NCBI GenBank assembly: GCA_947625405.1
Contig: CANQOF010000011.1
Location: 6,926 to 70,925, forward strand
DNA from: an uncultured Atopobiaceae bacterium
GTDB taxonomy: Bacteria > Actinomycetota > Coriobacteriia > Coriobacteriales > Atopobiaceae
Direction: 5' to 3'
Length of the DNA stretch: 64,000 nucleotides
The notes beneath the pieces are model-generated. The model worked only from the letters and a program-made list of their open reading frames with translations. It was not told where the DNA came from and did not search any database. The translations under genes and the position numbers were made by a program. Shown here in pieces: positions 17,401-33,773 of the stretch (its first letter is position 1; each line of letters starts with the position of its first letter).

Positions 17401-17890
17401 AGCTATTGGTGCTGGTGAAGGTCGCCGTTCCGGTACCACCAAGGGTCACGTCGGCATTGTTCCCAATAGCGAGTGCAGTCCCACTGGTGGTGAGGTTAGT
17501 GGTGCCCTCGAAGTTCACAAATGTGTCCACTGAGCCGTTGATATTGATAAGCGTGTTCGAGCTCGTGATGCTCCCGAGATTCGAGAACGTGATCGGGTTC
17601 GTGGCAGCATTCGCACCATTAAGCGCGATGGTGATCGCGCTTTGCGTCTCGCCCGCAATTGGCGAAATCGTGATGCCGGTAGATGGAACACTCGTAATGT
17701 TCGTGGCGCTAGTGATGCCGCTAGGAGCCTCTTCAGTCCCAGTGGCAACGATGTACCAACCGCCGTCCTCAAGCGGAGACATAGTCTCCGCTGGGTCGGC
17801 TACGGCCGGGGTGGCGACCACGACGGCTGCGAAGAGGGCCAGCAGCGCGGCGAAGACACCCCCAAATACCTTTTTCTTATTGGAACTCAT
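14423..17890 (-). CDS. large secreted Thr/Ser/Ala/Gly-rich surface protein A with three C-terminal YNPY...GW repeats
   Basis: The signal peptide MSSNKKKVFGGVFAALLALFAAVVVATPAVA|DP is near-identical to that of protein C. The long low-complexity T/S/N/G-rich region fits beta-helix or adhesin style. The C-terminal roughly 145 aa hold three tandem repeats RLYNPY..H..T......GW. AAGGAA lies upstream of the ATG at 17890. Confidence 0.8.
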   Translation of the reverse strand: MSSNKKKVFGGVFAALLALFAAVVVATPAVADPAETMSPLEDGGWYIVATGTEEAPSGITSATNITSVPSTGITISPIAGETQSAITIALNGANAATNPITFSNLGSITSSNTLININGSVDTFVNFEGTTNLTTSGTALAIGNNADVTLGGTGTATFTSTNSSNAAINNSGNADIVVADSLDLTASMSGGSVGSLALGTGTLTVGGKKSDATVTLNNTGSGPALVEGSKDGNVVTVQSGSSLNCTVKSPSVRGPAVDLGRTGNLVLNGSMSIELTGTGNMAALTADEILLGTADAPATGASLSVTANPNANITNLVSATALANYGGTVEVTANVTAPTGTKAETLSVNGVNLSGKLTAVSDADTSLVVANGGSVEVDVTAGSGTGLTSANAISVGTSVNGDNTEGILSVDAPGIATTVTSGNLTLAAGTVEATSTTATAIKGNVVASGGTLVASGGAPTASTVDSTPGYGIEGTVAVSNASRSANGGPTLTVSTTDTSAGSKAISSTITPDTVQDTPNAASNYKWVYVTGGTNAASAATAEKPQPVLPMEIYDYAGRAEDTALTAPVYNQVVIMPNPIVSFVATVSPANSSKGATLVSGSSPMPNGYVVANNVSVTTSTSDLTNVFAYSAKMAPSFQNSTYPLADNVAGAAANDVTTIFNGINSGSSPTVVTVNNAKAAFALTNKFTGTTVPLTLATDEAPNLAITGLYPEGSLGVTMNPIPVSYQVSFNANGTSATAQPAESPTVTKAEAGAFGYENDNIGVYFTEPGGDTILNGIPSITDTSKNVPVAALPTVNPQASFFLGWYQINSATDATVPVLADPLTEVPTANANVTYAAVYGVLDVDITNGVLEGSPQTIMAGETATYTVPVTVKLAPNNMTPYRGLKITDINLDPSVIEVGKAVNMTAKGSTSDKYVSNIWLAYTSTGAPVTNGGYSGTMNGVTFGDITVSDVSNGAFVISIPVNTGKNSTQGIYNMNVYINEAGQADTSPVKLQGALTIDGVAEDAPVAVMRLYNPYNGEHLLTTAQNEITANLNAGWRPDGIAWYSPAAGDPVYRLYNPYSHDHYYTSNTEEIAGLVKLGWVKDFETTDGQTPVFYSDTENSLYPIVQFFNPYVTEGTHLWTMDMNEIDTLEDAGWEYQGVKWYALMPGVSLA

Positions 17891-18230
17891 ACACAGGTTC
17901 CTTTCGTTCAACTGTTCTGGTCGTCCACCTAGCAGAGGCGACCATGTGTATGGACGTGCAAAAAGAAGCTCTTAGGGTTCTCGCGGCGATGGATCCCCAC
18001 GCGTCCGCACACCCCCTTCCGCGGTGGCGTGGACACCCGGCCCGCGAGGCTTATGGGGAATACACGACGTGAATGGAGACGCGCTCACGCGAAGCGCCGT
18101 GGCGCGGCATGCGCCACGAGTCGCCGCGAAAGCGCGAGGGAACCGCTGGTTTTTGGAAGATTTAGCGCCGCGAAGATTCGACAGCAGAAACGGAGCCAAG
18201 ACCCCTTCGGTTCTCAGCTCTTCTGAATGA

Positions 18231-18558: not shown

Positions 18559-20787
18559 CTACGAAGCGCGGAGGGTGGCGTAGAAGGCTACGTCCTCTTG
18601 CCGCCAGCCGAGGGTGGGGAGCACGGCGTACTCGTGGGGGTCGGCGGTCCAGTGGTGGGTGCCGGTAGTCTCGTAGGGGTTGAAGAGCTGGTAGACGGGC
18701 GTGGCGCTCGCACTCTCGCCGAAGAAGAGGGCCTCGCCCCCGTTGTCTGCGATCCAGCCGAGAGCCGTGAGGCTCTCCACCTCGGCTTTCTTCGTGGTGT
18801 AGTAGTGGTCGTAGTTGTAGGGGTTGTAGAGGCGGTAGACGTCCACGGGCCCCTCGACGGGCGCGTAGAAGGCGGTCCCCTCCTCCTCCCAGCCGCGGTT
18901 CACGTTCGCGCGGACCTCGGCCTGGTCGGTCGTGAGGAGGTGCTGGCCGTTGTAGGGGTTGTAGATCCTGAAGACGGTGACGCTGTCCTCGGGCGCGGCC
19001 ACGGAGCCGCCCTCGAAGACGGCCGTGTACACGGGCGCCGTCTCGCCCTCGGCGAGGACGACGGAGTACGGGCTCTGCGTGCTCACGATCGTGCCGTACT
19101 GGTTCTGCCAGCCGCGGAAGGTGGAGCCGTAGGGCTCAGTGACGGCAATGAGCGAGTATGTCTTCACGCCGTCCGCCGCCACGGCGATGCGCTGCGAGAC
19201 GCTGCCGAGGCCGTTGACGTTCACGGGGAGCGGATGCACGAGCGTGCTCGGGGCGCCGGGCGCGCCGGCGTCCGCCGCGGCGGAGGTGGGCCAGTAGGTG
19301 TAGGGCGCCTCGCCGCTCGCCGCCTCGGCCACGACCTCGATCTTCGAGTTCAGATAGCTCGTCTCGAGCGTGGAGGAGAAGTGCCCGGTGGAGACGTCGA
19401 TCGTCCCGCTCGCCGCGGGCGCGCTCGGCAGGGCAGCCTGGTACTGGCCGGATTGGTAGGCGATTGCGGGGATGCCCTCGGCGGCCACGAAGGTGCCGCC
19501 CGTGATGGCGCAGCTGCCCGCGCTCGCCGACGGCTGCGCGTAGCCCCGTTGCGCGCTCACGACCACCGCCGCCGGCACGTAGGCGATCTCCGCGCTCGAG
19601 CCCTCGGCCGTGGCGTCGCCCACGTTCACGGGCGCGCTCGAGGTGGCGGTGATGCCGCCGTTCGAGATGGCGAGCGTGGTGCCGAGCGAGACGATGCCCG
19701 CGCCGCCCGTGACGCTTCCGCCGGAGATGGTGCACTGGCTCGCCACGGACGCGCCCTCGGCGCTCGTGAGGCACATGCCGGCGCCCGCCGTGCCGCCCGC
19801 CACGGAGCCGCCCGTCATGGTGATCTCGATCACGCCGTCCGCACCGCCGAAGGTGGCGATGCCCGCGCTCGGGCCAAAGACTGAGCCGCCCTTGAGGAGC
19901 GCGATGTCCGCGCCGCCCGAGAGCGCGAGGCCATAGCCCGCCGCCTGCGCCGCCGGCACGCCGACGGTGCCCGCGTTCATCGTGATCGCGGCCTCGCCGT
20001 AGAGGCTGATCGCCGCGGAGCACTCCCCCGTTGCCGTCGCAACGCCCGTGAGGGCGCCCGCCGTGCCTCCGCCGGTGATGGTGCCGCCATCGAGCGTGAG
20101 CTCGCCGTAGCCGTCCATTCCGTAGGCGCTGCCGGCACGCGCGCCCTGCCCGAGGCAGATCGCGGAGCGCCCGCTCGTGGCGCTCACGTTGCCGGCTTTG
20201 AGCGCGAGCGCGGACACGCTCTCGTCCTCGTACATCACGCCGGGCACGAGGATCGCGTTGCCGTTCGCGGGCGCCGTGACGCTCGGGCCGTCGAGCGTGA
20301 GCGTGGGAGCGTGCTCCTCGCGCCCCGGCTCCTCCATGCCGAGCACGATCGTCGCCGGCACGGGGGTGCCCGGCGCGCCCGCGGAGGCGTTCGCGCTCGA
20401 GACGGTGCCCGCGCCCTTGAGCGTGAGGCTTCCCGAGGAGACCACGATCGCCGAGCGGCCCGATGAGGCCGTGAGGTTCTTGCCCGCGAGGTCGAGCGTG
20501 AGCGCGCCCTCGCCAAGCTTGAAGTCGAGCGCGGAGCTCGTGAGCACAATGTCGTCCGTGAGCGTGACGACGGCGCCGTCCTCGCTCGCGGTGGCCTTGT
20601 CGCCGAGCAAGCTCACGAGGCTCGCGGCGTCCGTGACCTCACCGCCCGCGACGTCGGTCGTCATGGGCGAGGCCTCGCGCGCCACGGCCGGGCGCGCCAC
20701 GAAGATCGCGAGAAGGGTGGCAAACACAGCAAACACGGCGAACACGCTGAGCGCGCTCGCCGCGAGATTCCAGGTAGTGCGTTTCAT
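18559..20787 (-). CDS. secreted Ala/Gly/Ser/Thr-rich surface protein B with three C-terminal YNPY...GW repeats
   Basis: Signal peptide MKRTTWNLAASALSVFAVFAVFATLLAIFVARPAVA. The body is G/A/S/T-rich and repetitive. The C-terminal triple repeat is IYNPYNGQHLLTT...GW. GGAGGAG lies upstream of the ATG at 20787. Confidence 0.8.
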   Translation of the reverse strand: MKRTTWNLAASALSVFAVFAVFATLLAIFVARPAVAREASPMTTDVAGGEVTDAASLVSLLGDKATASEDGAVVTLTDDIVLTSSALDFKLGEGALTLDLAGKNLTASSGRSAIVVSSGSLTLKGAGTVSSANASAGAPGTPVPATIVLGMEEPGREEHAPTLTLDGPSVTAPANGNAILVPGVMYEDESVSALALKAGNVSATSGRSAICLGQGARAGSAYGMDGYGELTLDGGTITGGGTAGALTGVATATGECSAAISLYGEAAITMNAGTVGVPAAQAAGYGLALSGGADIALLKGGSVFGPSAGIATFGGADGVIEITMTGGSVAGGTAGAGMCLTSAEGASVASQCTISGGSVTGGAGIVSLGTTLAISNGGITATSSAPVNVGDATAEGSSAEIAYVPAAVVVSAQRGYAQPSASAGSCAITGGTFVAAEGIPAIAYQSGQYQAALPSAPAASGTIDVSTGHFSSTLETSYLNSKIEVVAEAASGEAPYTYWPTSAAADAGAPGAPSTLVHPLPVNVNGLGSVSQRIAVAADGVKTYSLIAVTEPYGSTFRGWQNQYGTIVSTQSPYSVVLAEGETAPVYTAVFEGGSVAAPEDSVTVFRIYNPYNGQHLLTTDQAEVRANVNRGWEEEGTAFYAPVEGPVDVYRLYNPYNYDHYYTTKKAEVESLTALGWIADNGGEALFFGESASATPVYQLFNPYETTGTHHWTADPHEYAVLPTLGWRQEDVAFYATLRAS

Positions 20788-20879
20788 GAGCGGGGTCCTC
20801 TCCTCCAGCACGCACATAAAGGAAGGGCCTCGCTGAGCGCACGCTCAACGAGACCCTTCTCGCTAGGTTGAGTCCTCGC

Positions 20880-21110: not shown

Positions 21111-24100
21111 TTAGAGGTTCGTTCCGGGGTAGGAGGCGAACCACTTCGGACCCTCGTTCTTCCAACCCACGGACGGGTTGATGAGCGAGGCGACCTCGAC
21201 GGTGTTGGTGGTCCAGAGGTGCGTACCAGAGGTCACGTACGGGTTGAAGAGCTGGAACACCGGATAGAGCGAGCTCTCGGTGTCGCCGTAGAAGACGGGC
21301 GTCTGAGTGCCGTCGGCGTTCACGAAGTCCTTCTCCCAGCCGAGGGTGACGAGGCTATTCACCTCGGCCTCATCGGTGGTGTAGTAGTGATCGTGGTTGT
21401 ACGGGTTGTAGAGACGATAGACAGCCTGGCCGTCGGCGGGAGCGAACCACGCGATGTCCTCGGGGAGCCAACCGGCGGTGAGGAGCGCGAGAGATTCATT
21501 TTGCACGGTGGTGAGCACGTGTTCGCCGTCGTACGGGTTGTAGTAACGGATGACCGCGATGTCCGCATCAGCGGCAACGCCATCGATGTTGAGAACACCT
21601 TGGAGAGTCGTGCCGTCTGTCGCGCTTAGACCATTGAGATTGAGCTTCACATTTACCTGATAGGCGCCCTGTGAAGCGTTTCCACCAGTCATAACGGGGA
21701 TGTCAAGCGTGTAGGTTCCCTCGGCTTCGCCGGCGGTAAGGCTCGGCTCGCCGAGCTGCACACCGTTCATTTCGCCATTGTCGGTGCCGGTACCGTAATT
21801 AATGGAATCATCACTGATGATGCTCTTACCATGATTCTGAATTTGAACCACGGAGGGATCGATTACGATCGCGGGCTCCTGAGTCTGAACGCCTGCAGGA
21901 GAAGGATTGATGTTGATTTTTAGCGTAGCGGTGTAGCTCCCACTCTCACCCGCCATGATGGAGATCGGGGAATTCCCAAGCACCAGATTCTTATTAACGA
22001 GCTCGAACTTTCCGTATAGCGCGTAATTGATAGTGTTTTGCGTGACCGGAGCTACCTCAGTTAGCGGTTCGGGGCCGTAGATATCTTGCCCGTCCTTGTT
22101 GAAGCTATGGGTGTACCAACCAAGCACGTAGGAGTTGTTATCCGCAACGATCGGCAGGTCGGTAACTTCAACAGATTCGACAGACTCGCTGCTCGGATCA
22201 GGAACGTTGTAGACCATGTTGCCAGTGCCAGGCTCAGTAAAGTAGATGCCCTGTGAGCCACCCTTGTTCCCGAAGTCGAGTACCACCGCATCCTTGTTAG
22301 TAGGATCGGGAGCAGGCTGGGAAACAGGATTGCTGGTTTGGCTGTTGAAAACCACCTGATAGGAAACGGGGATATTGGTTGCGCCCACAGTTGCCTTGTC
22401 GTAGAGTGCATCGACCACAGCGCTGCTCGAAAGATCAGCAACGGTCGTGGAAGCCTTCGTAGCAAGGCTTACTGAAGGCTCGGCGCCAGTGAGATTACCC
22501 GTCACCCAAACGCCATTTCTCAGAGTGGAAAGCGTTTGCTTGTTTGCGACAGCGCCAGCCGGCTGAGTCGCGATGCTCGAGCTTGGATCAGCAACCGTAC
22601 CCGCGTTCACACCCTTGGCAAGCGGATACGAGATGTTGTTGCTGAAGGCACCGGGGATAATGGTTACATCGTAGACATAGCCATCAGAGGCACTGCTCAC
22701 AGAGCCGATGTTCGCGACCATGTAGCCGTCAGGCATATTGAGGTGGTCTGCAGAGCCGTAAGAATTAGAAGCAGGAGTAATGCCGAGCTCCCAAGAAGTC
22801 ACCTTGGCAGGTTCAATCGTGAGGCTATTCCCTTGAGGCGTTACCGTAGCGCCCGTGCCCTTTTCATCGCCATCCATTCCAGCAAAACCATAGATCCTGG
22901 TTTCAAGTGCCGCCGGAGGAACGGCGTCAGGACCGGGCTCTTCATCAGGATCGGGAGCAGGCTTGTCCATGCCACCACCGGCATAGGCAACCCACTGATA
23001 ATTCTGGATCTCACTGGTACTCGGGACTGATTTTACAGTAATAGAATCACCTGCAACGGCAGGAGTGGCAGCAAGCGTGGAGATGTCACCCGCTTGGACG
23101 TTTACGGTTGGGCCATCGCTATTCGCAAGCGTGTTGGAAACCGTAAGAGTGCCACTGATGCCGCTTTGGGGAGTGTTTTCCACACCATCGAGGTAGGACG
23201 GGGTTACACCACCAGTGGCAGTGAGTTCGCCACCAGTAACTGTGACGTTCCCATCAATGCCAATACCAGCGCTCGAGGTTGCCGTCACGGAGCCATTGGC
23301 AAGAGTCGGATTGCCCTTGATGGCGGTCCCAGCAGAGGTAACCGTGAGGGTTCCCGCACTTGTAGCGCTTCCCACAGTCACGGTCCCCGCAGTCAGACCC
23401 ACTGTTTCAACACCAGAAGCGTTGCCGGTGGTAATGGTGGCGGAACCGTTAAGGGTGAGGGGACCTTCACCCAGATTCACATTGTCGGAGGCCTGACCAG
23501 TCGTCGAAGCGTTGAGGCTGCACCCCTTGGCAACGGTCATAGTCAGACTCGTAGCAGTGATGCATGGACCGTTTGTATTGCTCACGGTGAGGGACGGGGT
23601 GTTGGGATAGGTTGCCCCAGTTTCACTTGTTGGATCCGTAACGGCAGAATTGGCGCCCACATTGAGCGTAGAGGTCCCCATGGCCATAGCAGGGGTAGCC
23701 GCCACGTCTGTAGTTGCGGAGAGGGTGCCCGAACCCGTGAGGGAAACGCTCACACTAGACGCGTTATTTGCAACAGAGAAAACCGTCCCGTTGTTTGAAG
23801 ACGTGAACGAGTTACTACCCACAAGGTTAATGGTGAACGTGTTCTCCCCACCATCCGACCCGAGCGTAAGAGGCGTGGCCGTTGCATTGCTGGGGACACT
23901 CGCCGTAATCCCATTGAGGGTAATCACGGAGCCGGTGGCGCCCGATTGAGGAGCGATCACGAGAGGCAGCGTCGGTGTACCAGTTATCTGAACGGTAATA
24001 TCCGTAATGCTACTTGAAGGCTTCACGGTAACCGCTGTACTACTTTCCTCAATAAGGTCAGAGACATCCGCATCCTTATTGCTTGTTTGGTAGATGCCAT

Positions 24101-24236
24101 AACCCTGCTTGGAGGTGACATCCATCTCACCTGCCGGGTCGGCTACCGCCGGCGTGGCGACTACCACGGCGGCGAAGAGGGCAAGCAGCGCTGCCAGCGC
24201 TCCCGCCCAGATCTTCTTCTTAGGACTGTGGCTCAT
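21111..24236 (-). CDS. large secreted surface protein C, paralog of A, with three C-terminal YNPY...GW repeats
   Basis: The signal peptide MSHSPKKKIWAGALAALLALFAAVVVATPAVA|DP, a T/S/N/G-rich body, and a C-terminal module about 70% identical to that of A. AAGGAG lies upstream of the ATG at 24236. The track start at 24623 adds an Arg-rich non-protein-like extension. Confidence 0.8.
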   Translation of the reverse strand: MSHSPKKKIWAGALAALLALFAAVVVATPAVADPAGEMDVTSKQGYGIYQTSNKDADVSDLIEESSTAVTVKPSSSITDITVQITGTPTLPLVIAPQSGATGSVITLNGITASVPSNATATPLTLGSDGGENTFTINLVGSNSFTSSNNGTVFSVANNASSVSVSLTGSGTLSATTDVAATPAMAMGTSTLNVGANSAVTDPTSETGATYPNTPSLTVSNTNGPCITATSLTMTVAKGCSLNASTTGQASDNVNLGEGPLTLNGSATITTGNASGVETVGLTAGTVTVGSATSAGTLTVTSAGTAIKGNPTLANGSVTATSSAGIGIDGNVTVTGGELTATGGVTPSYLDGVENTPQSGISGTLTVSNTLANSDGPTVNVQAGDISTLAATPAVAGDSITVKSVPSTSEIQNYQWVAYAGGGMDKPAPDPDEEPGPDAVPPAALETRIYGFAGMDGDEKGTGATVTPQGNSLTIEPAKVTSWELGITPASNSYGSADHLNMPDGYMVANIGSVSSASDGYVYDVTIIPGAFSNNISYPLAKGVNAGTVADPSSSIATQPAGAVANKQTLSTLRNGVWVTGNLTGAEPSVSLATKASTTVADLSSSAVVDALYDKATVGATNIPVSYQVVFNSQTSNPVSQPAPDPTNKDAVVLDFGNKGGSQGIYFTEPGTGNMVYNVPDPSSESVESVEVTDLPIVADNNSYVLGWYTHSFNKDGQDIYGPEPLTEVAPVTQNTINYALYGKFELVNKNLVLGNSPISIMAGESGSYTATLKININPSPAGVQTQEPAIVIDPSVVQIQNHGKSIISDDSINYGTGTDNGEMNGVQLGEPSLTAGEAEGTYTLDIPVMTGGNASQGAYQVNVKLNLNGLSATDGTTLQGVLNIDGVAADADIAVIRYYNPYDGEHVLTTVQNESLALLTAGWLPEDIAWFAPADGQAVYRLYNPYNHDHYYTTDEAEVNSLVTLGWEKDFVNADGTQTPVFYGDTESSLYPVFQLFNPYVTSGTHLWTTNTVEVASLINPSVGWKNEGPKWFASYPGTNL

Positions 24237-24661
24237 ACACAGTCTCCTTTCCTTGGTTCCTTTGACACCCCCACCTAGCGAAAGGGGCGCTATTTCCTGA
24301 GAGACGGTTCCTTGGGGATGCGCTCCCCTGAACTGCGCGGCCCTGCCGCGCGCCTCACGCAAAGGGGCGTCCCCTCTGCCGGATGCGCGCGCTGCGGGCT
24401 CCTCCCACTCCTGGCCCGCGGGCTTGATGCGCGACGACCTCGCTCCGCGCGCTTCCTTGGGAATGGCGAGCGCGCGGCTGTGCACACGAAAACGCGCCCT
24501 CGAGCGAGCGGAGTTGGGCGCGCGTGAACGCGCACGCGGAATCGCTCGCGAGAACGCCGGAAACTGCCGAGTGGGATACGAATTGAGGGTGCTGCTCGAG
24601 GCTCTCTCGCCTCGACACGACAAAACAGACTAGGGGCCTCTCGCCTTCTAGCCTATGACGA

Positions 24662-24670: not shown

Positions 24671-24953
24671 GCGCTAGCCCGCGGGAAGAGAGCGGTTTAG
24701 ATGCCCTAGCAAGCACCATGCCGCGTAAGAGTCCCTCCTAGCAAAGGTCTCCTTCGAAGCGGGAGCTTAAGCCAACCCCGCCGCGCGGTCAAATCTCCCC
24801 CGCCGAACGCGCGGCTTTTGACACGGATTCGTTACGTCGCGCGGCGGCGGGGGGCGCCACTTAGGATGGATAGCCGGCGAATGCCGAATGGTTCATCTCC
24901 CCAGGGAGCTGTGCTGCGTGGAGGAAACGTGCTTTGGCGAATGAGCGATGACG

Positions 24954-25092
24954 GCGCGCTATACTGGAACGCGGAAAACGGCAAGGCCCGCGTGTGGTTA
25001 AAAAGGGAGCGGGCGGCGCGGTTTCGTGAGGGAGACGGAGTTCCTACCTCCGTCTCCTCTTTTGTGCCCTGCGTCTCCGCACGGAGCGTTTC
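24954..25092 (+). repeat. 137-bp direct repeat, left copy (DR-L), flanking the low-GC island
   Basis: Aligns with 28692-28828 at roughly 88% identity by eye. It contains TATACT (24960-24965), the hairpin GGAGACGGAG/CTCCGTCTCC (25031-25057) followed by TCTTTTG, and a relic of the C-terminal codons KRSVRRRRAQKRRRR* on the minus strand. Confidence 0.85.
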
Positions 25093-25099
25093 ATACCAG

Positions 25100-25132
25100 C
25101 CATCTGGCTCTGCGCGGCGCAGAGCCAGATGG
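25100..25132. promoter_or_regulatory. perfect 16-bp-arm palindrome at the inner edge of DR-L
   Basis: CCATCTGGCTCTGCGC-G-GCGCAGAGCCAGATGG, followed within 20 nt by CTCTTTTTG. It could be a terminator, an operator or a recombination site. Confidence 0.6.
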
Positions 25133-25237
25133 TCTAGGCCTTGCCGCTCTTTTTGTGAGCTTTTGCATGTGAGAGTTTGGATCTCGTGGGCGCACTATCA
25201 TCACTCACATAAGCTCGCACCATTGAAATGCATCGCC

Positions 25238-26779
25238 ATGGACGTCATCAAACGCATTCTCCATAAGCTTGATGAGCTTAAACACGTCTCTGACCTCGCC
25301 GCGTATTGCTATCTCGAGGTCACACGTACCGTGCATGATGAAACTTCTTTTCTCGGCGGGTACTGGATGTCGGGAACTCACGTCTCTAATCCGAACCTAC
25401 CCAATCTCAAGCGCCTCGGCTACGACATATCTCGATGCGTTAAGCCCATGGACTTCTATGAGAGGGGTCGGGTGCGCCGTTTACTCGAAGAGTTCGAGGA
25501 AACGGGTATCAAGCCCTACCGAGTCCCCGGGCTTCAAGATCCGGACTACAACGAAGCGACCATTCCATGGGCTGTTCTTTGGGGGCTCAGCGAGGGAATT
25601 GCAAGTCGTCCGGAATATGGCGAGCTACACCGCATTCAACCCCTCAACGAATACGGCAAAGAGAAGGTGGGGGTTTATCTCGCCCCGCACGATTCCTTCA
25701 TCTGCGACATCCTTCGGGAGCGCAAGGTCCAACGAGTGCCAGATGGCCGTCTCAACGAGATGCTTCGCGGACTTGCGCTCTATCCCCGAAGCGAACTCAA
25801 GACCATCGAATACCCCAAGATCAAGACCATCGCGAACATGGAGAATCCTGGAAGAGAGCCGATCCTCAAGATCGGCCTTTGCCAGCTCACCGCCGCACCG
25901 ATCTTCACGTTCGATGGTGAAGACGAAAGCGCCTTCATGGATTTTCGCCACATCGGTGGCGGACTCTTTGATGTGCACTATGGGAGAGACTTCGAACAGC
26001 ATGCGTACCTGAACGTCGTCTCGCCACTCATCGACGCGATCGAGGCGGGCTGCGAAATCGTCGTCTATCCAGAACTTGCGATGTCCCCTCAGCTGCTCGA
26101 GGCGGTGAAGGCGTTCCTTTCGAACCCCGAACACGACAAGAAGGCCCTCAAGCTTGTGGTGGCGGGGAGCGGACGCCCGGGCAATGAACGCGACAACGTG
26201 TGCACCTTGCTCAAATGCGACGGCGAGGTGCTGGGTACGTGCCACAAGTTCAGCAAGTTCATCGATTTGGGGGATCCTCCCCTTGTGGAGCAGCTTGATC
26301 ATCCTGGCGCCACCAACACATTGGTAGACATCGCGGGCGTCGGGCGTGTGCTCGTGGGCATCTGCAAGGATCTCGCCTCAGACGGCGAACGAGTGACCCT
26401 CGAGATCGCCCACGCACTCAAGCCGCAAGTGGTATGCGTACCCGCCTTGAGCCAGTCCGTCGACAAGGCATTCTCAATCGCGCTTCACGAACTCACGGTT
26501 CGCAAGCACGCAATCGGTTGCGTCTGCAACCTCTGCGCCGCTCGCAAACAATACGGGCAGAGTGAGGTAGGCGTGAGCTGCGTTGCCTCGTTTGAATTTT
26601 GCGGCGCTCGTGGGAAGGCCTTGGACTGCCAGATCCACTCGATCACACGCCCAAAAGGCGCACAGGCCGAATGCGCGCAACGATTGGGAGGCTGCATGAG
26701 GGTGGTTTCACTTGATTTCAACGGACCGCTGGGGCCGCGAATCCTCAGCAATCCCTGTCCCGCGCGTATCCAAAACTAA
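25238..26779 (+). CDS. fusion protein: unknown N-terminal domain (about 205 aa) plus carbon-nitrogen hydrolase (nitrilase superfamily)-like domain
   Basis: The C-terminal roughly 300 aa follow the C-N hydrolase pattern. The blocks are KIGLCQL, EIVVYPE (E279), CHKFSKF (K337), VLVGICKDL (C376) and VVCVPA. G+C is visibly lower than in the flanks. The ATG at 25238 has no obvious SD, so the start is uncertain. Confidence 0.6.
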   Translation: MDVIKRILHKLDELKHVSDLAAYCYLEVTRTVHDETSFLGGYWMSGTHVSNPNLPNLKRLGYDISRCVKPMDFYERGRVRRLLEEFEETGIKPYRVPGLQDPDYNEATIPWAVLWGLSEGIASRPEYGELHRIQPLNEYGKEKVGVYLAPHDSFICDILRERKVQRVPDGRLNEMLRGLALYPRSELKTIEYPKIKTIANMENPGREPILKIGLCQLTAAPIFTFDGEDESAFMDFRHIGGGLFDVHYGRDFEQHAYLNVVSPLIDAIEAGCEIVVYPELAMSPQLLEAVKAFLSNPEHDKKALKLVVAGSGRPGNERDNVCTLLKCDGEVLGTCHKFSKFIDLGDPPLVEQLDHPGATNTLVDIAGVGRVLVGICKDLASDGERVTLEIAHALKPQVVCVPALSQSVDKAFSIALHELTVRKHAIGCVCNLCAARKQYGQSEVGVSCVASFEFCGARGKALDCQIHSITRPKGAQAECAQRLGGCMRVVSLDFNGPLGPRILSNPCPARIQN

Positions 26780-26838
26780 ACGATCACTTAACTTTGGGTA
26801 ATAATACCGCCATTACCCATTGAACCATGAGGTGAACG

Positions 26839-27708
26839 ATGGACTACGATCCCAAGGTCCTCTTCCAGGAAGTGCTCGACGACCTTGAAGCAAACAAGCC
26901 CCTCGAAGAACGCCAATTTCGCCTTATCTACGACTACACCTGCGATCTCATGCGCAACAAGCGCTCGATGGAGCCTTATGTGCAGAACGTGTGCCAACGC
27001 GTGATAAGCGCCTACGACCTCCATGAAGACGAGATCCGCGCCAAGTCCAACAGCTTCGACTGGGCCGCGGTGTGGGCCGCCTTCTCCATGCTTGAGCAGT
27101 ATCGCCGCGATCTCAGGCAAGACGCGAGGGATGTGGAGCGAATCGCCGTCGTGCGGAACTACCTCGATCTCTTCGAGGCGATCGATGCCAATCCCTGGTG
27201 CAACCAGCGGGCACTCGCCGAGATACTCGGCAAGTCCGCGGGCGATATCTCGCAAAAGCTCGAGAAGATTCGTCGGGTTGACGATCTCATACATGAGATT
27301 TCCTCGGGCAGGGAGAAGTTCTACAGCCTCTCTGAGACAGGCGCGAGGATCCTCAGCGAGCAGCGCCACAAGGCGGAGGCAGGCGTCAGCCTCCCTCTCA
27401 GGCTGGGCGGCGTCCGCTCCCCGCTCAGCGTGAGGTATCACATTGACGTCGGCCTCCATGAGGCCAAGATTACGCGATACGACAAGACCGGCAAGGCGAA
27501 ACCCCACATCGTTATGGTCCACCCTGCGCTTTCTAGCCCAGTTCGTAGCGAATCCGCGCAGGGTCCAAAGGTACAGGCAACAACTGATGCGATGAAAGTG
27601 GGCGCGGGACTTGATTCAACAAGCATGGTGCGCATCCAACCCGTCGAAGACACGCCGGCAAGAGATATGCGTGAAGCCGCTCATTTCTTGAAGGGACAAA
27701 AGCGATGA
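26839..27708 (+). CDS. winged helix-turn-helix (MarR/ArsR-like) domain protein
   Basis: The central segment NQRALAEILGKSAGDISQKLEKIRRVDDLIHEISSGREKFYSLSETG has an HTH-plus-wing pattern. GAGGTGA lies 5 nt upstream of the ATG. The stop overlaps the next start (ATGA). Confidence 0.6.
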   Translation: MDYDPKVLFQEVLDDLEANKPLEERQFRLIYDYTCDLMRNKRSMEPYVQNVCQRVISAYDLHEDEIRAKSNSFDWAAVWAAFSMLEQYRRDLRQDARDVERIAVVRNYLDLFEAIDANPWCNQRALAEILGKSAGDISQKLEKIRRVDDLIHEISSGREKFYSLSETGARILSEQRHKAEAGVSLPLRLGGVRSPLSVRYHIDVGLHEAKITRYDKTGKAKPHIVMVHPALSSPVRSESAQGPKVQATTDAMKVGAGLDSTSMVRIQPVEDTPARDMREAAHFLKGQKR

Positions 27709-28283
27709 GCTATGCGGATACGTTGCCAAGCGAAGCTAAGGTGAAGGATTGGCTTTCGCAGATCCAGAGTGCGAGCAAAGAGGAACGCGCCGGCGAGATC
27801 CTTCGCCACGTCGTGGAACACCACCATTGCCAACTTACGAATACCTCTCCTGATGAGGATTTGGAAAGGCTCGAAGCCTTGCAGGATTCGGGGATCGTAC
27901 GCTGCGTTCTTTCCACCATTCAGCGCCTTGAGCTGCTGAACCCCGAGGCTCAGGTGTTCTACGTGAGCCTTGCTGATTGCCTGCTGAGCGATTCTCTTTT
28001 CCCGAGCGAGGAAGACAAGACTGCGGCACTCGTCCTCATGGTGAGCTATCCATCGTTGCCCTACCACCGCTACGAGCCTGTGACGCTCAATAACGTTGAG
28101 CTCGTAGAGCGAAGAGCGGAGCTCGAAGATACGCTCGATGAGCTTTGGAGGCTCTCGCAGCGACAATTCGGACGACAGATCGATTTCTGTGCCGCGTATC
28201 TCAGCGTTGTCGCGCGTTTCGATGATCTAGCCGATCGCGCAATCCTCATGTCGGAGATCGTAGAGCGTAGCTACGAGAGCTAG
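27705..28283 (+). CDS. hypothetical protein (predicted helical, acidic), translationally coupled to the wHTH gene
   Basis: ATGA start/stop overlap at 27705-27708. The 192-aa sequence is protein-like and I recognise no motif. Confidence 0.55.
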   Translation: MSYADTLPSEAKVKDWLSQIQSASKEERAGEILRHVVEHHHCQLTNTSPDEDLERLEALQDSGIVRCVLSTIQRLELLNPEAQVFYVSLADCLLSDSLFPSEEDKTAALVLMVSYPSLPYHRYEPVTLNNVELVERRAELEDTLDELWRLSQRQFGRQIDFCAAYLSVVARFDDLADRAILMSEIVERSYES

Positions 28284-28691: not shown

Positions 28692-28828
28692 GCGCGCTAT
28701 ACTGAGCGCGGAAAACGGCGAGGCCCGCGTGGGGTTAAGTAGGAGCGGGCGGCGCAGTTTGCTTAAGGAGACGGAGATCCTACCTCCGTCTCCTCTTCCG
28801 TGCCCTGCGTCTCCGCACGGAACGTTTC
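28692..28828 (+). repeat. 137-bp direct repeat, right copy (DR-R)
   Basis: See DR-L. It contains TATACT at 28698-28703 and the hairpin at 28767-28793, and overlaps the 3' end of the small ORF 28780-28908. Confidence 0.85.
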
Positions 28829-28908
28829 GTCCTCCTTTCCAACCAGTCGTAGATACTGATCAGACCAGCGACGATCGTGACGATCGCCGTCAAGAGTTCA
28901 ACGATCAT
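28780..28908 (-). CDS. small membrane peptide (42 aa) with an Arg-rich tail
   Basis: MIVELLTAIVTIVAGLISIYDWLERRTKRSVRRRRARKRRRR has one TM helix and a polybasic tail. ATG at 28908 with a G-rich stretch upstream. The stop codon lies in the loop of the DR-R hairpin. It is only the 3' tail of the 270-aa track ORF. Confidence 0.4.
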   Translation of the reverse strand: MIVELLTAIVTIVAGLISIYDWLERRTKRSVRRRRARKRRRR

Positions 28909-29070: not shown

Positions 29071-29136
29071 TTTCGTATGATTGGGGCGTGAGATGGCGGG
29101 AGCGATTGGGGCTCCTTGGGCAGAGAGTGGTGGTCT

Positions 29137-30831
29137 ATGTATTGCGGCAAGTGCGGCACCGAGATCCAGCCTGGCGCGAAGTTCTGTCCGAAATGCGGCG
29201 CGCCCGTCGCCGAGGCGAACGAGGCCGCGCAGCCGCAGGCGGCCGCCTCGCAGCCGGCGAACGGGACCGAGCCATCGCCGGCATCCGCGCCCGCACCAGC
29301 TCCCGCGCCCGCACCAGCTCCCGCGCCCGCGCCCGCGCCCAAGTCCCGCGTGCCGCTCTTTGCCGGCATCGCCATCGCGGCCGCGGTGGTGGTCGCGACG
29401 GGCGTCTGGGTGTGGTTCGCCTTCCTCGCCCCCATCCCCATCGACGAAGCCACCTTCCCCGACGCGGCCGTGCGAAGCGTCGTCGCGAGCCAGCTCGACA
29501 CCGACGGCAACGGCGAGCTCTCCCGCGAGGAGGCCGGAAACGCCACGAGCTTCTCCGTGGACGGCGCGGCGAACCTCGAGGGCCTGCGGCACTTCCCCAA
29601 CCTCGCGAGCATCTCCGTGGCCGGCACGTCGCTTTCCGCCGTGGACCTCGCCCCCTTCGCAAACCTCGAATCCTTCACGACCGAATCCACGCTCCCCACG
29701 CTCGACGTCTCACGCAATCCGCGCCTCACGAAGCTCTTCATCGCGGACGACACGGAGGTCACGGGCCTCGAGGCCACGAACCTCGAGGAAACGTGGCTTC
29801 CCATGGGCTTCACGCGCGGCTTTGGCCAGGAGGGCGAGACGATGGAGACGCAGGAGGGTGATTCCGTCGTGCGCGACGCGGCCGGCACACCGACCGTCTA
29901 CAAGGAGGTGTGGTACTCGCGCGGCACGGGCGAGAAATCCACGGCCACCACGACCTACGACTTCGACGACGCGGGCAGGATCGTGTCCGCCACCACGGAG
30001 AGCTTCTACTCGAGCACCGACGACGGCTCCGCGTACACCAGCGAGTACCGCTACGACGACGCCGGGCGCCTCGCCACGGCCACGAACCACTACGACTACG
30101 GCACCTACACCACGAACTACACCTACGACGCGGACGGGAGACTCTCCGCCTGCTCGCAGGGCTATCCGGATTCCACGACGGATCCCACCGGGACGAAGAT
30201 CAACTACGACGACGCCGGGCGCGCGATCTCCGTCGTGAACGAGACGCCGGGCGCGGCGAACCAGGTGCTCGAGAACTATGGCTACGACGACGCAGGGCGG
30301 CTCTCGAGCGTCTCGAACATCCGCCCGAAGTCCTACAACTACACCGACTACGCGCTCACCTACGACGAGGAGGGGCGCGTGGCGAAGGTGGAGATGACGC
30401 CGGGCGCCCCGCTCGGCTCGAGCAGCGTCACCCCCACGGGGAGCTACCGCGTGTCCATCGAATACGCCTACGACGAGAACGGGCGCTTCTCGAGCGCGAG
30501 CTCCGTCGCCGACTACGGCAGCGGCACGCCGAGCGAGGCCGAGGCAAGCTTCGAGTACGACGGGCACGGCAACCTCGTGAAGGTGGACGTGCGCCACAAG
30601 TCGCAGGACAGCTCCTACCCGGACTCGCACACCGTCTTTGAAGCCAGCTACGCGCGCTTCTTCACCGAGAAAGGCGCCGAGCCGCCCACGCGGGTGCTTT
30701 ACTTCGAGCCCTCGTGCTCCGATTCGATCTTCGGGGAGTTCACGCTGAGCCCCACGACGCCCGCGATCCCGGACCTCGGCGCGCCCTACATGGCGTTCGT
30801 CTACAACGCACTCGGCACCGACTACTACTAG
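29137..30831 (+). CDS. zinc-ribbon / TM / leucine-rich-repeat / YD(RHS)-repeat protein
   Basis: MYCGKCGTEIQPGAKFCPKCG is a zinc ribbon. It is followed by an (AP)n linker, a TM segment, LRR-like segments (NLEGLRHFPNLASISV...), then at least 7 YD repeats (YDDAGRL, YDADGRL, YDEEGRV, YDENGRF, YDGHGNL). Confidence 0.8.
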   Translation: MYCGKCGTEIQPGAKFCPKCGAPVAEANEAAQPQAAASQPANGTEPSPASAPAPAPAPAPAPAPAPAPKSRVPLFAGIAIAAAVVVATGVWVWFAFLAPIPIDEATFPDAAVRSVVASQLDTDGNGELSREEAGNATSFSVDGAANLEGLRHFPNLASISVAGTSLSAVDLAPFANLESFTTESTLPTLDVSRNPRLTKLFIADDTEVTGLEATNLEETWLPMGFTRGFGQEGETMETQEGDSVVRDAAGTPTVYKEVWYSRGTGEKSTATTTYDFDDAGRIVSATTESFYSSTDDGSAYTSEYRYDDAGRLATATNHYDYGTYTTNYTYDADGRLSACSQGYPDSTTDPTGTKINYDDAGRAISVVNETPGAANQVLENYGYDDAGRLSSVSNIRPKSYNYTDYALTYDEEGRVAKVEMTPGAPLGSSSVTPTGSYRVSIEYAYDENGRFSSASSVADYGSGTPSEAEASFEYDGHGNLVKVDVRHKSQDSSYPDSHTVFEASYARFFTEKGAEPPTRVLYFEPSCSDSIFGEFTLSPTTPAIPDLGAPYMAFVYNALGTDYY

Positions 30832-31334: not shown

Positions 31335-32558
31335 CTACACGTGGAGGATCTGCCAGGTGGTGGGGTCGTCGAAGTGCTCGTTCGGCACCCACCACGCCTT
31401 GCGATTTTCGAGGTCGAACACCACGGAGTGCACCGTCACCACGCCGGGCTCGAGGTCGCCATGCGTGGCGTTGTAGAGCCGCTGGCCCACGGACGCGAGC
31501 ACCTCGAGCGCCTTGCCCTCGTCCTCCACGACGCCGTTCGAGGCGGCGAGCTCCCCCTGCATGGTGCGGTAGCGCTCGATGCCGAGCATCTCGCTCTGCT
31601 CCGCGTAGTAGCGCGGCTCGCAGAGGATGAAGTTGGTGATGAGCTGGAAGCGCTCCTCGCGCTCCTCTTGATCGAGCACGTAGACGGGATCGCCGAGGTA
31701 GATGACCCTGAGGGGGCGGTTGGCGTCCGTTTTGTCCGCCTCGAGCGAGGGGCCGGCCCACTCCAAGATCGCGCTTTTGCCGGAGGCGTCCGCGATCATG
31801 TAGTGGAACGAGTTGTGCGCCGAATCGTGCAGGTCGTAGCGTCCGGCGAGCTCGATGGCCTCGTCCACCGTGCTCGCGTAGTCGAGCATGAGGCGCAGCA
31901 TCGTCGTGGACGTGAGGCTCGGCTTGCCGGTGCTCTGCTCGGTGGGCACGGAGTACATCTCGTGGTTCTCGTCCACGCCGCCGCCCTGGAGGCTCATGTA
32001 GATGCCGCACGCGAGGCCCGCGTCGTTGATGCCGTCGAGCGGGGCGTAGGGCGCGGCGAGGATGTTCACGCGATCCATCAACCCCTGCACGCCTTTCTCG
32101 GGGTCCACGCCGAGGAACTGAAGGTCGACGGTGGAGACGGAGGCGTGGCGGCCGCCGCCGGGGTTCGTGCGGACGAGGCAGGTGTTCGTGCGCTTGAAGT
32201 CGTAGTTGCGGCCGAAGAGCGGGCGACCGTCCTCCGCGCGCGCCATGAACGACGAGCACGTGATGTCGGATTCCTTGATCGTCGTGGGGATGATGCCCTT
32301 GCCGATCTTGCTCGTGATGAAGGAGATGAGCTCGGCGTCGGTGGCCGCTCCGCCCTTCTCGAGAAACTCGTCGAAGTAGTAGCCGCCCGCGACCTCCATC
32401 CGCCACACCTCGCCGTCGTCGTGCGCGGGGTTCGCGGGCGAGATGCGCTTGAGGGCGAGGAGGGACTTCAATTCGTTTCCGAAGGACCGCCAGATGGCGG
32501 CGGCGCTCGCGGCGAGGGTGCCGAGGGCGAAGAGCTTGAGGAACGGATGCTTGGCCAT
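31335..32558 (-). CDS. linear amide C-N hydrolase, choloylglycine hydrolase/Ntn family, secreted or membrane-anchored
   Basis: N-terminal hydrophobic anchor. DITCSSFMA is a candidate Cys nucleophile context. GRNYDF and NDAGLA are present. GGAGG lies 6 nt upstream of the ATG at 32558. Confidence 0.75.
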   Translation of the reverse strand: MAKHPFLKLFALGTLAASAAAIWRSFGNELKSLLALKRISPANPAHDDGEVWRMEVAGGYYFDEFLEKGGAATDAELISFITSKIGKGIIPTTIKESDITCSSFMARAEDGRPLFGRNYDFKRTNTCLVRTNPGGGRHASVSTVDLQFLGVDPEKGVQGLMDRVNILAAPYAPLDGINDAGLACGIYMSLQGGGVDENHEMYSVPTEQSTGKPSLTSTTMLRLMLDYASTVDEAIELAGRYDLHDSAHNSFHYMIADASGKSAILEWAGPSLEADKTDANRPLRVIYLGDPVYVLDQEEREERFQLITNFILCEPRYYAEQSEMLGIERYRTMQGELAASNGVVEDEGKALEVLASVGQRLYNATHGDLEPGVVTVHSVVFDLENRKAWWVPNEHFDDPTTWQILHV

Positions 32559-32846
32559 GAGTGCCTCCGAACGTGCGACGGTTGCGCGCAGCCGCCTCGT
32601 GCGCGCGGCCGCGTGGCCTATTGTGCCGCAGAGCGCACTCGCGCAAAGCGGGCACAAGACACGCAGGATTCGGGTAGAATGAGTGCAACCGCAGAACCCG
32701 CTACTCTGCTTTAGTCGCTACGCGGGCGACGCTTGTGAGGCCGGGCTGCACCCCGGCCTCGCGCGTGTTTGGCGCGGTTGCTTCGTCGCCACCACCACCC
32801 ACTCACAAGTAGACTGAAACGCGGGGTCTTTGCGAAGGAGGGCGTC

Positions 32847-33402: not shown

Positions 33403-33637
33403 GGTGCCCTTACGGTGTACTTCGTGGCACGGGAGCGCTTGCGGTGTGCGCGAATACGCCACCTCTGCGCTTGCGGTGTGCGAAAAGGGCCGAAATCGAG
33501 CGAATCCGCTCCTTTTCACTACACCGCAAGGGCATCCGTGCCACGAAATACACCGCAAGGGCATCCGTGGCACCACCGCGTACACCGCAAGGGCGTCCGT
33601 GGCACGAGATACACCGCAAAGCTACCCGCAGCACGGG
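33403..33637. repeat. iteron-like array: 3 inverted plus 4 direct copies of a roughly 29-32-bp unit with core CACCGCAAG
   Basis: CTTRCGGTG occurs at 33409, 33438 and 33470. CACCGCAAG or CACCGCAAA occurs at 33522, 33551, 33583 and 33612. The extended unit is TACACCGCAAGGGCATCCGTGSCAC. Confidence 0.85.
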
Positions 33638-33697: not shown

Positions 33698-33773
33698 TGG
33701 AGCCAGCTATCAGACTTGAACTGATGACCCCCGCTTTACGAGAGCGGTGCTCTACCGACTGAGCTAAGCTGGC
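33698..33773 (-). tRNA. tRNA-Thr (anticodon CGT)
   Basis: The reverse complement GCCAGCTTAGCTCAGTCGGTAGAGCACCGCTCTCGTAAAGCGGGGGTCATCAGTTCAAGTCTGATAGCTGGCTCCA folds as a cloverleaf. It has 7-bp acceptor, D, anticodon and T stems. The anticodon loop is CTCGTAA and the 3' CCA is encoded. Confidence 0.92.

Follow-up and report, generated by a model that had tools for sequence, protein, structure and literature searches.

A nitrilase-superfamily protein in a recurrent three-gene cassette of gut and animal-associated anaerobes, and its possible role as a conflict effector without a reverse transcriptase

What is the role of a nitrilase-superfamily protein that carries a large N-terminal domain of its own and has no reverse transcriptase (RT) fused to it or beside it? 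This question is raised by a gene, here called gene 1, in a 64,000-nucleotide stretch of DNA from an uncultured Atopobiaceae bacterium (GenBank assembly GCA_947625405.1, contig CANQOF010000011.1, positions 6,926 to 70,925), which was analysed at its full length and is referred to as the window. A first-pass annotation, made from the letters of the DNA, had described the product as an unknown, sensor-like N-terminal domain fused to a C-N hydrolase domain, had noted that nitrilase folds occur in RT-based antiphage proteins, and had proposed a new effector architecture in a foreign island. We found that gene 1 is the first member of a cassette of three genes, in which it is followed by genes for a predicted winged-helix DNA binder and for a small acidic protein. 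Our preferred explanation, to which we assign a probability of roughly one half, is that the cassette forms a mobile and self-contained conflict module whose effector is the nitrilase and which operates without an RT.

The nitrilase domain and the N-terminal domain of gene 1

By profile comparison and by its predicted structure, the C-terminal half of the gene 1 product belongs to the nitrilase superfamily, as had been read earlier from the order and spacing of blocks in the last ~300 amino acids (aa), and its set of catalytic residues is complete. An AlphaFold model built from 116 sequences reached a predicted local distance difference test score (pLDDT) of 92.1 and a predicted template-modelling score (pTM) of 0.92. 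When this model was compared to the PDB with Foldseek, 146 nitrilase-superfamily chains were returned at E <= 1e-3, including Nit2, beta-ureidopropionase, the Nesterenkonia amidase and D-carbamoylase; the best match had E = 2.4e-10 and a probability of 1.00, and the target-normalised template-modelling score was up to 0.59. A first model, built from 4 sequences, had a pLDDT of 50, and the fold search with it gave nitrilases only; in a viral structure library, the sole match was a cyanophage CN hydrolase. The profile of the 116 family members matched yeast Nit3 (1f89) in the PDB at E = 2e-5, with the FPE, K, E..PG and IC.D blocks of the family aligned to the corresponding blocks of Nit3.

The motifs quoted in the first-pass annotation, with their codons, are all correct: KIGLCQL (residues 209-215), EIVVYPE with Glu279, CHKFSKF with Lys337, VLVGICKDL with Cys376, and VVCVPA (398-403). 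A second nitrilase glutamate, Glu351, is found within VEQLDHPG. Among the 116 relatives, Lys337 and Cys376 are present in 116 of 116 and both glutamates in 115 of 116; thus, selection acts on catalysis. The gene 1 product is probably an active nitrilase-type enzyme, a prediction made from its sequence and from the model. The C-terminal extension contains a cluster of cysteines (C430 in 92, C433 in 115, C479 in 112 and C486 in 115 of the 116 relatives), which plausibly forms a structural metal site.

The checks proposed for the assignment included a structure prediction and a search with the Pfam CN_hydrolase hidden Markov model (HMM). The former, described above, was in favour of the fold, whereas the latter gave a divided result. 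The gene 1 product itself has no match in Pfam, NCBIfam or PADLOC even at E <= 1; however, 34 of 90 relatives match CN_hydrolase (PF00795) at E <= 0.01, the best at 9e-7. A weak single-sequence match of the product was to N-carbamoyl-D-amino-acid hydrolase (E~0.9), over the EIVVYPELA block. It should be noted that superfamily membership is based on fold and profile evidence and not on the HMM score of the protein itself.

The reading frame is not in doubt. The stop-to-stop frame that contains gene 1 spans 24818-26779, and the ATG at 25238, from which the residues had been numbered in the first-pass annotation, yields 513 aa. The public gene call (P0001) gives the identical 513-aa product with the same start, and relatives align from residue 1 onward; therefore, this ATG is the correct start. 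Upstream of it, the DNA is non-coding and consists of a repeat element and two terminator-like hairpins. A longer open reading frame (ORF) from the TTG at 24818 was considered and rejected: it would cross the flanking repeat and both hairpins, and the extension is found in no relative.

The first ~205 residues had been described as unlike anything recognised, and this description holds. When 30 of these N-terminal domains were scanned separately against Pfam, there were scattered single-member sub-threshold matches only, none of them consistent, and a profile of the N-terminal domains had no match among PDB sequences. In the model, the domain is formed by seven helices in residues 1-130 and a small mixed region, after which the first nitrilase strand begins at residue 209. 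It is present in all full-length relatives, including longer members with insertions, and has conserved motifs: D19-x-AA-x-CY, N51-P-N53, D118 (Ser in the window protein), G-P135-L-N137 and V-Y147. A transmembrane segment is lacking in the N-terminal part, as claimed before, and a membrane domain of Lnt type is absent from gene 1; the highest 19-residue Kyte-Doolittle mean is 1.43, and the N-terminal domain is modelled as soluble and helical. Could this domain be a degenerate RT, CARF or transmembrane domain? We rejected these candidates, as no PADLOC match of the relatives extends into the domain, Pfam and the PDB contain no match, and there is no hydrophobic segment. The word "sensor-like", conversely, was a guess. 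The pTM of 0.92 suggests that the N-terminal domain is packed onto the enzyme, and with this packing a cap for the substrate or for oligomerisation would agree no less well than a sensor that can detach.

A three-gene cassette in unrelated neighbourhoods

The order gene 1-gene 2-gene 3 is kept in every related locus with enough DNA. It was found in 12 of 12 genome loci, using a local hmmsearch with HMMs of genes 2 and 3, and in the metagenome contigs L001, L014-17, L019, L020, L034 and L035-37; in L003 and L018 it is kept up to the contig end. The genome loci belong to Lachnospiraceae metagenome-assembled genomes (MAGs), one Bacillota MAG and the complete chromosome of Bengtsoniella intestinalis (Oscillospiraceae). 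The gene 1 products of these loci are only 20-33% identical to the window protein, and the order of the trio is conserved despite this divergence. No RT is fused or adjacent to gene 1 in any locus examined, and residues 1-205 are without RT signature, in line with the earlier observation that no RT-like motif is present.

Gene 2 encodes a protein with a conserved helical N-terminal region of ~100 aa containing an F..G(A)CWG-like motif, an ArsR/MarR-type winged helix-turn-helix (wHTH) in the middle (about residues 110-175), and a variable C-terminal tail. Its profile matches HlyU, NolR, SmtB and MarR structures in the PDB at E 3e-6 to 1e-4, and relatives match HTH_24 and MarR_2; for the window gene 2, searches of Pfam, NCBIfam and PADLOC gave sub-threshold wHTH hints only. 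On these profiles, the gene 2 product is a predicted winged-helix DNA binder. The spacer of 59 nucleotides (nt) between genes 1 and 2 contains a perfect 7-bp inverted repeat, GGGTAAT-N9-ATTACCC (26796-26818), which the winged-helix protein may use as an operator; alternatively, the repeat may act as an attenuator. The ATG of gene 3 overlaps the stop codon of gene 2 (ATGA), suggesting that gene 3 is translationally coupled to gene 2. Gene 3 has no match in Pfam, PADLOC, NCBIfam or the PDB, and its product is acidic throughout the family, with an isoelectric point (pI) of 4.1-4.8 in all seven homologues compared.

The tails of gene 2 proteins (L001, L003, L020, L026, L029, L031 and others) contain, in an otherwise unalignable region, a short hydrophobic-x-N-G/N motif with the variants FKNGS, FENGA, LKNGS, LENGL and LQNGL, which is not evident in the window gene 2. 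Such asparagine-containing tails bring up one alternative, namely that the enzyme modifies proteins or peptides, either its own partners or a cellular protein, as a deamidase or an N-acyltransferase similar to Lnt or Nta1, with the gene 2 tail as a possible target. Protein- and peptide-directed members of the nitrilase superfamily exist, Nta1 and Lnt being the precedents; 7 of the 90 relatives have weak matches to the NCBIfam Lnt model, many gene 2 tails end in the motif, and the large extra domain could bind a macromolecular substrate. However, the motif in the tails is a weak one that the window gene 2 lacks, and the Lnt-type membrane domain is missing; we consider this explanation very unlikely.

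A word-indexed protein search yielded 3 relatives and suggested an orphan family. This was overturned when the four closest sequences were used to seed an exhaustive HMM search: at thresholds of E <= 1e-3, 1e-10 and 1e-30, it yielded 1136, 376 and 116 representative clusters, respectively. The relatives are mostly 500-550 aa long and align end to end, nearly all of them with the same two-domain layout. The family comprises hundreds of clusters at 50% identity, with members in Lachnospiraceae and Oscillospiraceae genomes. The proposal of a new effector architecture was thus right in spirit and understated: instead of a one-off fusion, there is a large unannotated family of three genes. Scans with an alignment of the closest relatives found nothing in species-representative genomes and viral contigs, and in the metagenome collection they detected no more than two nitrilases, both distant; with tblastn, no homologue was found in the plasmid and phage collections. 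A distant nitrilase of 421 aa was seen in a soil metagenome (Ga0134128; L013, 26-2134). Its N-terminal region is different and shorter, it matches Pfam CN_hydrolase at 27.0 bits, above the 23.2 cut-off, and it is followed by a 272-aa winged-helix protein. Since nitrilase and winged helix are paired there with a different N-terminal region, this pairing may predate the N-terminal domain.

The flanks of the 12 genome loci are mutually unrelated, except for generic ABC ATPase similarity and one neighbour common to two loci; therefore, the trio moves as a unit. In the window, the G+C content at third codon positions (GC3) is 0.66-0.72 for the cassette genes and 0.88-0.94 for neighbouring host genes, and a ~145-bp direct repeat lies on both sides of the cassette. 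The claim of a foreign island is consequently correct as to "foreign" but generous as to "island", because the unit is a cassette of 3.7 kb; in other genomes, it stands alone among housekeeping genes.

These features would also fit a purely selfish addiction module without any antiviral role. In this case, the nitrilase would act as toxin and the product of gene 3 or gene 2 as antitoxin, and the wHTH protein would regulate its own operon. Such a module would stabilise itself or the DNA in which it resides. A small autonomous cassette at unrelated sites among housekeeping genes, its foreign composition and flanking repeats, and the combination of a DNA-binding partner with an acidic partner through start/stop coupling all agree with such a module. 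In one Lachnospiraceae MAG (L031, 9965-11399), gene 1 is split into two overlapping ORFs by a frameshift or an assembly error, and genes 2 and 3 are intact, as expected if loss of a toxin is tolerated. In another MAG (L030, 2430-2657), on the contrary, gene 3 is cut to ~75 aa and gene 2 is shortened, whereas gene 1 retains all catalytic residues, which counts against an addiction module. Furthermore, the proteins of classical type II toxin-antitoxin systems are far smaller than the products of gene 1 (about 510-570 aa) and of gene 2 (about 260-350 aa), and no cassette was found in the plasmid collection, although addiction modules are common on plasmids. We therefore regard a purely selfish module as quite unlikely; many toxin-antitoxin modules are themselves antiphage, however, and to that extent this explanation overlaps with that of a conflict module.

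Table 1. Positions in the window of the cassette genes, of the parts of gene 1 and of the flanking repeats
Feature	Positions	Strand	Description
Gene 1	25238..26779	+	513 aa; family-specific N-terminal domain and nitrilase-superfamily domain
N-terminal domain of gene 1	25238..25852	+	Residues 1-205; no characterised counterpart
Nitrilase (C-N hydrolase) fold	25853..26776	+	Gene 1 residues 206-513; from Foldseek, profile against PDB and residue counts
Putative catalytic residues	Glu279 26072-26074; Lys337 26246-26248; Glu351 26288-26290; Cys376 26363-26365	+	
Cys cluster of the C-terminal extension	26525-26695	+	C430, C433, C479, C486
Gene 2	26839..27708	+	289 aa; 59 nt downstream of gene 1; GAGGTGA Shine-Dalgarno before ATG
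Gene 3	27705..28283	+	192 aa; acidic, pI 4.6; no recognisable domain
Left direct-repeat copy	24955..25100	none	~145 bp; hairpin GGAGACGGAG-N7-CTCCGTCTCC, then T-run
Right direct-repeat copy	28692..28837	none	~145 bp; overlaps 3' end of a small minus-strand ORF

Comparison with known nitrilases and possible roles of the cassette

In the literature consulted, nitrilase domains in defence are described only with class 3 UG/Abi RTs, namely DRT1, UG5/DRT11, UG6 and UG29 (PMC13275509, PMC13436386, PMC9226505, PMC9122126). In DRT1 and DRT11, these domains are proven essential effectors whose substrate is unknown and whose activity is gated by the oligomeric state (PMC13275509, PMC13436386, PMC9226505); the C-terminal extension of DRT1 is a regulatory lid on which the nitrilase activity depends (PMC13275509). 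The gene 1 product resembles DRT1 (UG1) and DRT11 (UG5-large) in that it has a nitrilase domain with the Glu-Lys-Glu-Cys set, which is the effector in those systems and the presumed effector here, in that the nitrilase substrate is unknown in both, and in that a C-terminal extension follows the fold; the PADLOC model RT_UG5-nitrilase matches 17 of the 90 relatives, over the nitrilase part. It differs in several respects. There is no RT domain, alpha-repeat domain or associated transmembrane protein, and the protein has 513 aa, compared to >1000 aa in DRT1 and DRT11. As far as sequence profiles show, the N-terminal domain is unrelated, the C-terminal extension has a conserved cluster of 3-4 Cys, and the partner genes encode a wHTH protein and an acidic one.

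Also comparable are the RT-associated nitrilases that are encoded on their own in UG5-small (cluster 249) and UG6 (cluster 285); there, as in gene 1, the nitrilase is a separate protein with an N-terminal extension. These are defined by an adjacent UG RT gene (PMC13436386), whereas gene 1 loci have none. RTasNitrilase is the best PADLOC model for the gene 1 family, with matches in 23 of the 90 relatives (best E 9e-9); however, the match covers the nitrilase core only (protein residues 251-376 against profile positions 169-286). The CARF-nitrilases, predicted ancillary effectors of type III CRISPR systems (CARF_m7--CARF_nitrilase), are similar in that a nitrilase is fused to an N-terminal domain other than an RT, and the CARF_nitrilase model matches 8 of the 90 relatives (best E 3e-7). 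These matches start at profile position ~217-220, past the CARF part; there are no CRISPR genes near gene 1, and searches of Pfam and the PDB revealed no signature of CARF or another known sensor in residues 1-205. Thus, the RT-nitrilase link mentioned in the first-pass annotation is reflected in the relatives but only in their nitrilase part, and it does not extend to the window protein. Gene 1 is not a member of the RT-nitrilase systems, the CARF-nitrilases or Lnt, as the defining RT, CARF or membrane domain is absent.

The closest solved structures are found among metabolic amidases. Nit2/Nit3 omega-amidase, beta-ureidopropionase and N-carbamoyl-D-amino-acid hydrolase have the same fold and catalytic residues and provide the best structural and profile matches. 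Their sequence identity to the gene 1 product is only 12-17%, and they are without the 205-aa N-terminal domain and the Cys cluster at the C-terminal end, nor are they accompanied by wHTH and acidic partners. As housekeeping genes, they are inherited vertically, in contrast to gene 1, which is sporadic and mobile. The cassette could nevertheless be a niche catabolic or detoxifying operon for an amide, nitrile or carbamoyl substrate in gut and anaerobic habitats, with gene 2 as a substrate-responsive regulator, gene 3 as an accessory subunit and the N-terminal domain shaping specificity. Metabolic enzymes as the nearest structures (Nit2 omega-amidase, beta-ureidopropionase, D-carbamoylase, aliphatic amidase) agree with such an operon, as do ArsR/MarR-type regulators, which are common controllers of operons of this kind, the metabolic character of several neighbourhoods, and the high pTM, which suggests that the N-terminal domain is an integral cap. 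Against such an operon, neither a transporter nor another gene of a pathway is conserved together with the trio, and the flanks differ from locus to locus. Divergence within one gene order is very fast (20-33% identity), distribution is sporadic with horizontal acquisition, gene 2 has 2-3 times the size of ordinary ArsR/MarR regulators and a conserved extra region of its own, and gene 3 has no enzyme-like features. Taken together, a metabolic role appears rather unlikely.

A conflict module, by comparison, is suggested on circumstantial grounds: the unit is autonomous, mobile and fast-evolving, and it combines an enzyme with a DNA binder and a small acidic partner. The matches of relatives to the RT-associated and CARF nitrilase models of PADLOC point the same way, as does one locus (L014) in which the cassette has defence genes as neighbours. 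We infer a system of the toxin or abortive-infection kind. In such a system, the nitrilase encoded by gene 1 (Cys376 with Glu279, Lys337 and Glu351), presumably a thiol enzyme of the amidase or acyl-transfer type, would be the effector, and upon release it would destroy or modify a metabolite or macromolecule that bears an amide or amine group and is essential to the cell. The product of gene 2 would repress the operon, sense the trigger, or both. The acidic protein would keep the enzyme inactive or serve as an adaptor; it might block the oligomerisation that nitrilases need for activity. The cassette could then be viewed as the nitrilase arm of DRT1/UG5-type defence with a DNA-binding partner in place of the RT.

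Several observations weigh against a conflict module. The gene 1 product itself matches no PADLOC defence model, and its placement in the defence nitrilase clade is unproven since the PADLOC scores of relatives are no stronger than those of generic CN_hydrolase. There is no direct tie to mobile-element warfare, as no homologue was found in the phage, plasmid and viral-contig collections. Recognised defence genes were seen in only 1 of roughly 18 distinct contexts. In that context (L014, 14292-21617), genes for DUF6119, OLD-like TOPRIM/AAA_21 and AAA_15/AAA_21 proteins lie downstream of the cassette of relative P0008, and all of them interrupt a polysaccharide cluster, where a UDP-glucose dehydrogenase-type gene is present as two fragments on either side of the insertion; this site is likely to be a defence hotspot. 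The other neighbourhoods are mostly of housekeeping or surface-polysaccharide character (FGGY kinase, Asn synthase, MatE, Na:Ala symporter, glutamate synthase, glycosyltransferases, ABC transporters), and aggregate PADLOC matches in the flanks are mostly to generic ATPase or desulfurase models. Across the loci, no consistent placement in defence islands was found. Finally, an essential antitoxin role of gene 3 is difficult to reconcile with L030, in which gene 3 is truncated next to an intact gene 1.

In a narrower version of the conflict reading, the cassette would be an antiphage system of a new type: control over a nitrilase effector of the defence type would lie with an acidic inhibitor and with a winged-helix protein, as sensor or regulator, and not with an RT; we put this forward tentatively, as a possibility that falls short of being probable. 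It would have consequences for the study of defence nitrilases, which were previously thought to be tied to RTs: the gene 1 family has the same catalytic machinery in a much smaller protein, and since this protein has 513 aa and involves no DNA synthesis, a search for the substrate of defence nitrilases would be simplest here. Any conflict system of this type would separate the nitrilase effector from RT biology and offer a tractable model for substrate finding. If the role is metabolic, the family would add to the nitrilase superfamily a new branch of considerable size, so far without annotation, from anaerobes of the gut and of animals. In either case, there are three protein families without any Pfam, NCBIfam or PADLOC model, and no description of a nitrilase/winged-helix/acidic-protein trio was found in the literature that could be searched. 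The nitrilase fold and the catalytic set are known; what is new here are the partners and the extra domain of the nitrilase, be it an effector or another kind of enzyme.

Flanking repeats and other features of the window

The two copies of the flanking repeat are ~90% identical in pairwise alignment and belong to repeat families D7 and D20. Their core motif occurs only twice in the 64 kb, compared to 0 occurrences expected by chance. No Rfam family matches the repeat; as a candidate for a known RNA, it was rejected, because the sole match was a spurious one to mir-337 (25 bits, compared to the cut-off of 80 bits) and the fold z-score was -1.2. By eye, a small ORF on the minus strand (28780-28908, MIVELLTAIVTIVAGLISIYDWLERRTKRSVRRRRARKRRRR) has its 3' end inside the right repeat; it encodes one hydrophobic helix and an Arg-rich tail and, judged from these features, resembles a small membrane toxin. 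The left repeat contains a truncated remnant of this ORF only, at about 25040-25095 on the minus strand (MKRSVRRRRAQKRRRR). With the full ORF end in the right copy and a truncated version in the left one, the arrangement looks like an insertion that duplicated its target region.

Three genes for large secreted or surface proteins lie upstream of the cassette on the minus strand (14423-17911, 18559-20817 and 21111-24623; 1162, 752 and 1170 aa). They have in common C-terminal repeated modules of the type RLYNPYN..H.YTT...E...L..LGW, corresponding to DNA repeat families D1-D6; GC3 is atypical in two of them (0.71 and 0.63) and similar to that of host genes in the middle one (0.94). Downstream, at 33405-33634, there is a cluster of direct and inverted repeats of ~27-61 nt with TACACCGCAAGGGCATCCGTGCCACGAAA units (families D14 and I1), which adjoins the only tRNA gene of the window, tRNA-Thr(CGT), at 33698-33773 on the minus strand. 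Two further genes between the cassette and this cluster have host composition and were characterised by eye. The first (29116-30831, plus strand) encodes 571 aa with a zinc-ribbon-like CxxC..CxxC N-terminus, an Ala/Pro linker, a transmembrane segment and YD-like repeats; the second (31335-32657, minus strand) encodes 440 aa with a ...DITCSSF...GRNYDF start and has the look of an Ntn amidase of the choloylglycine-hydrolase type.

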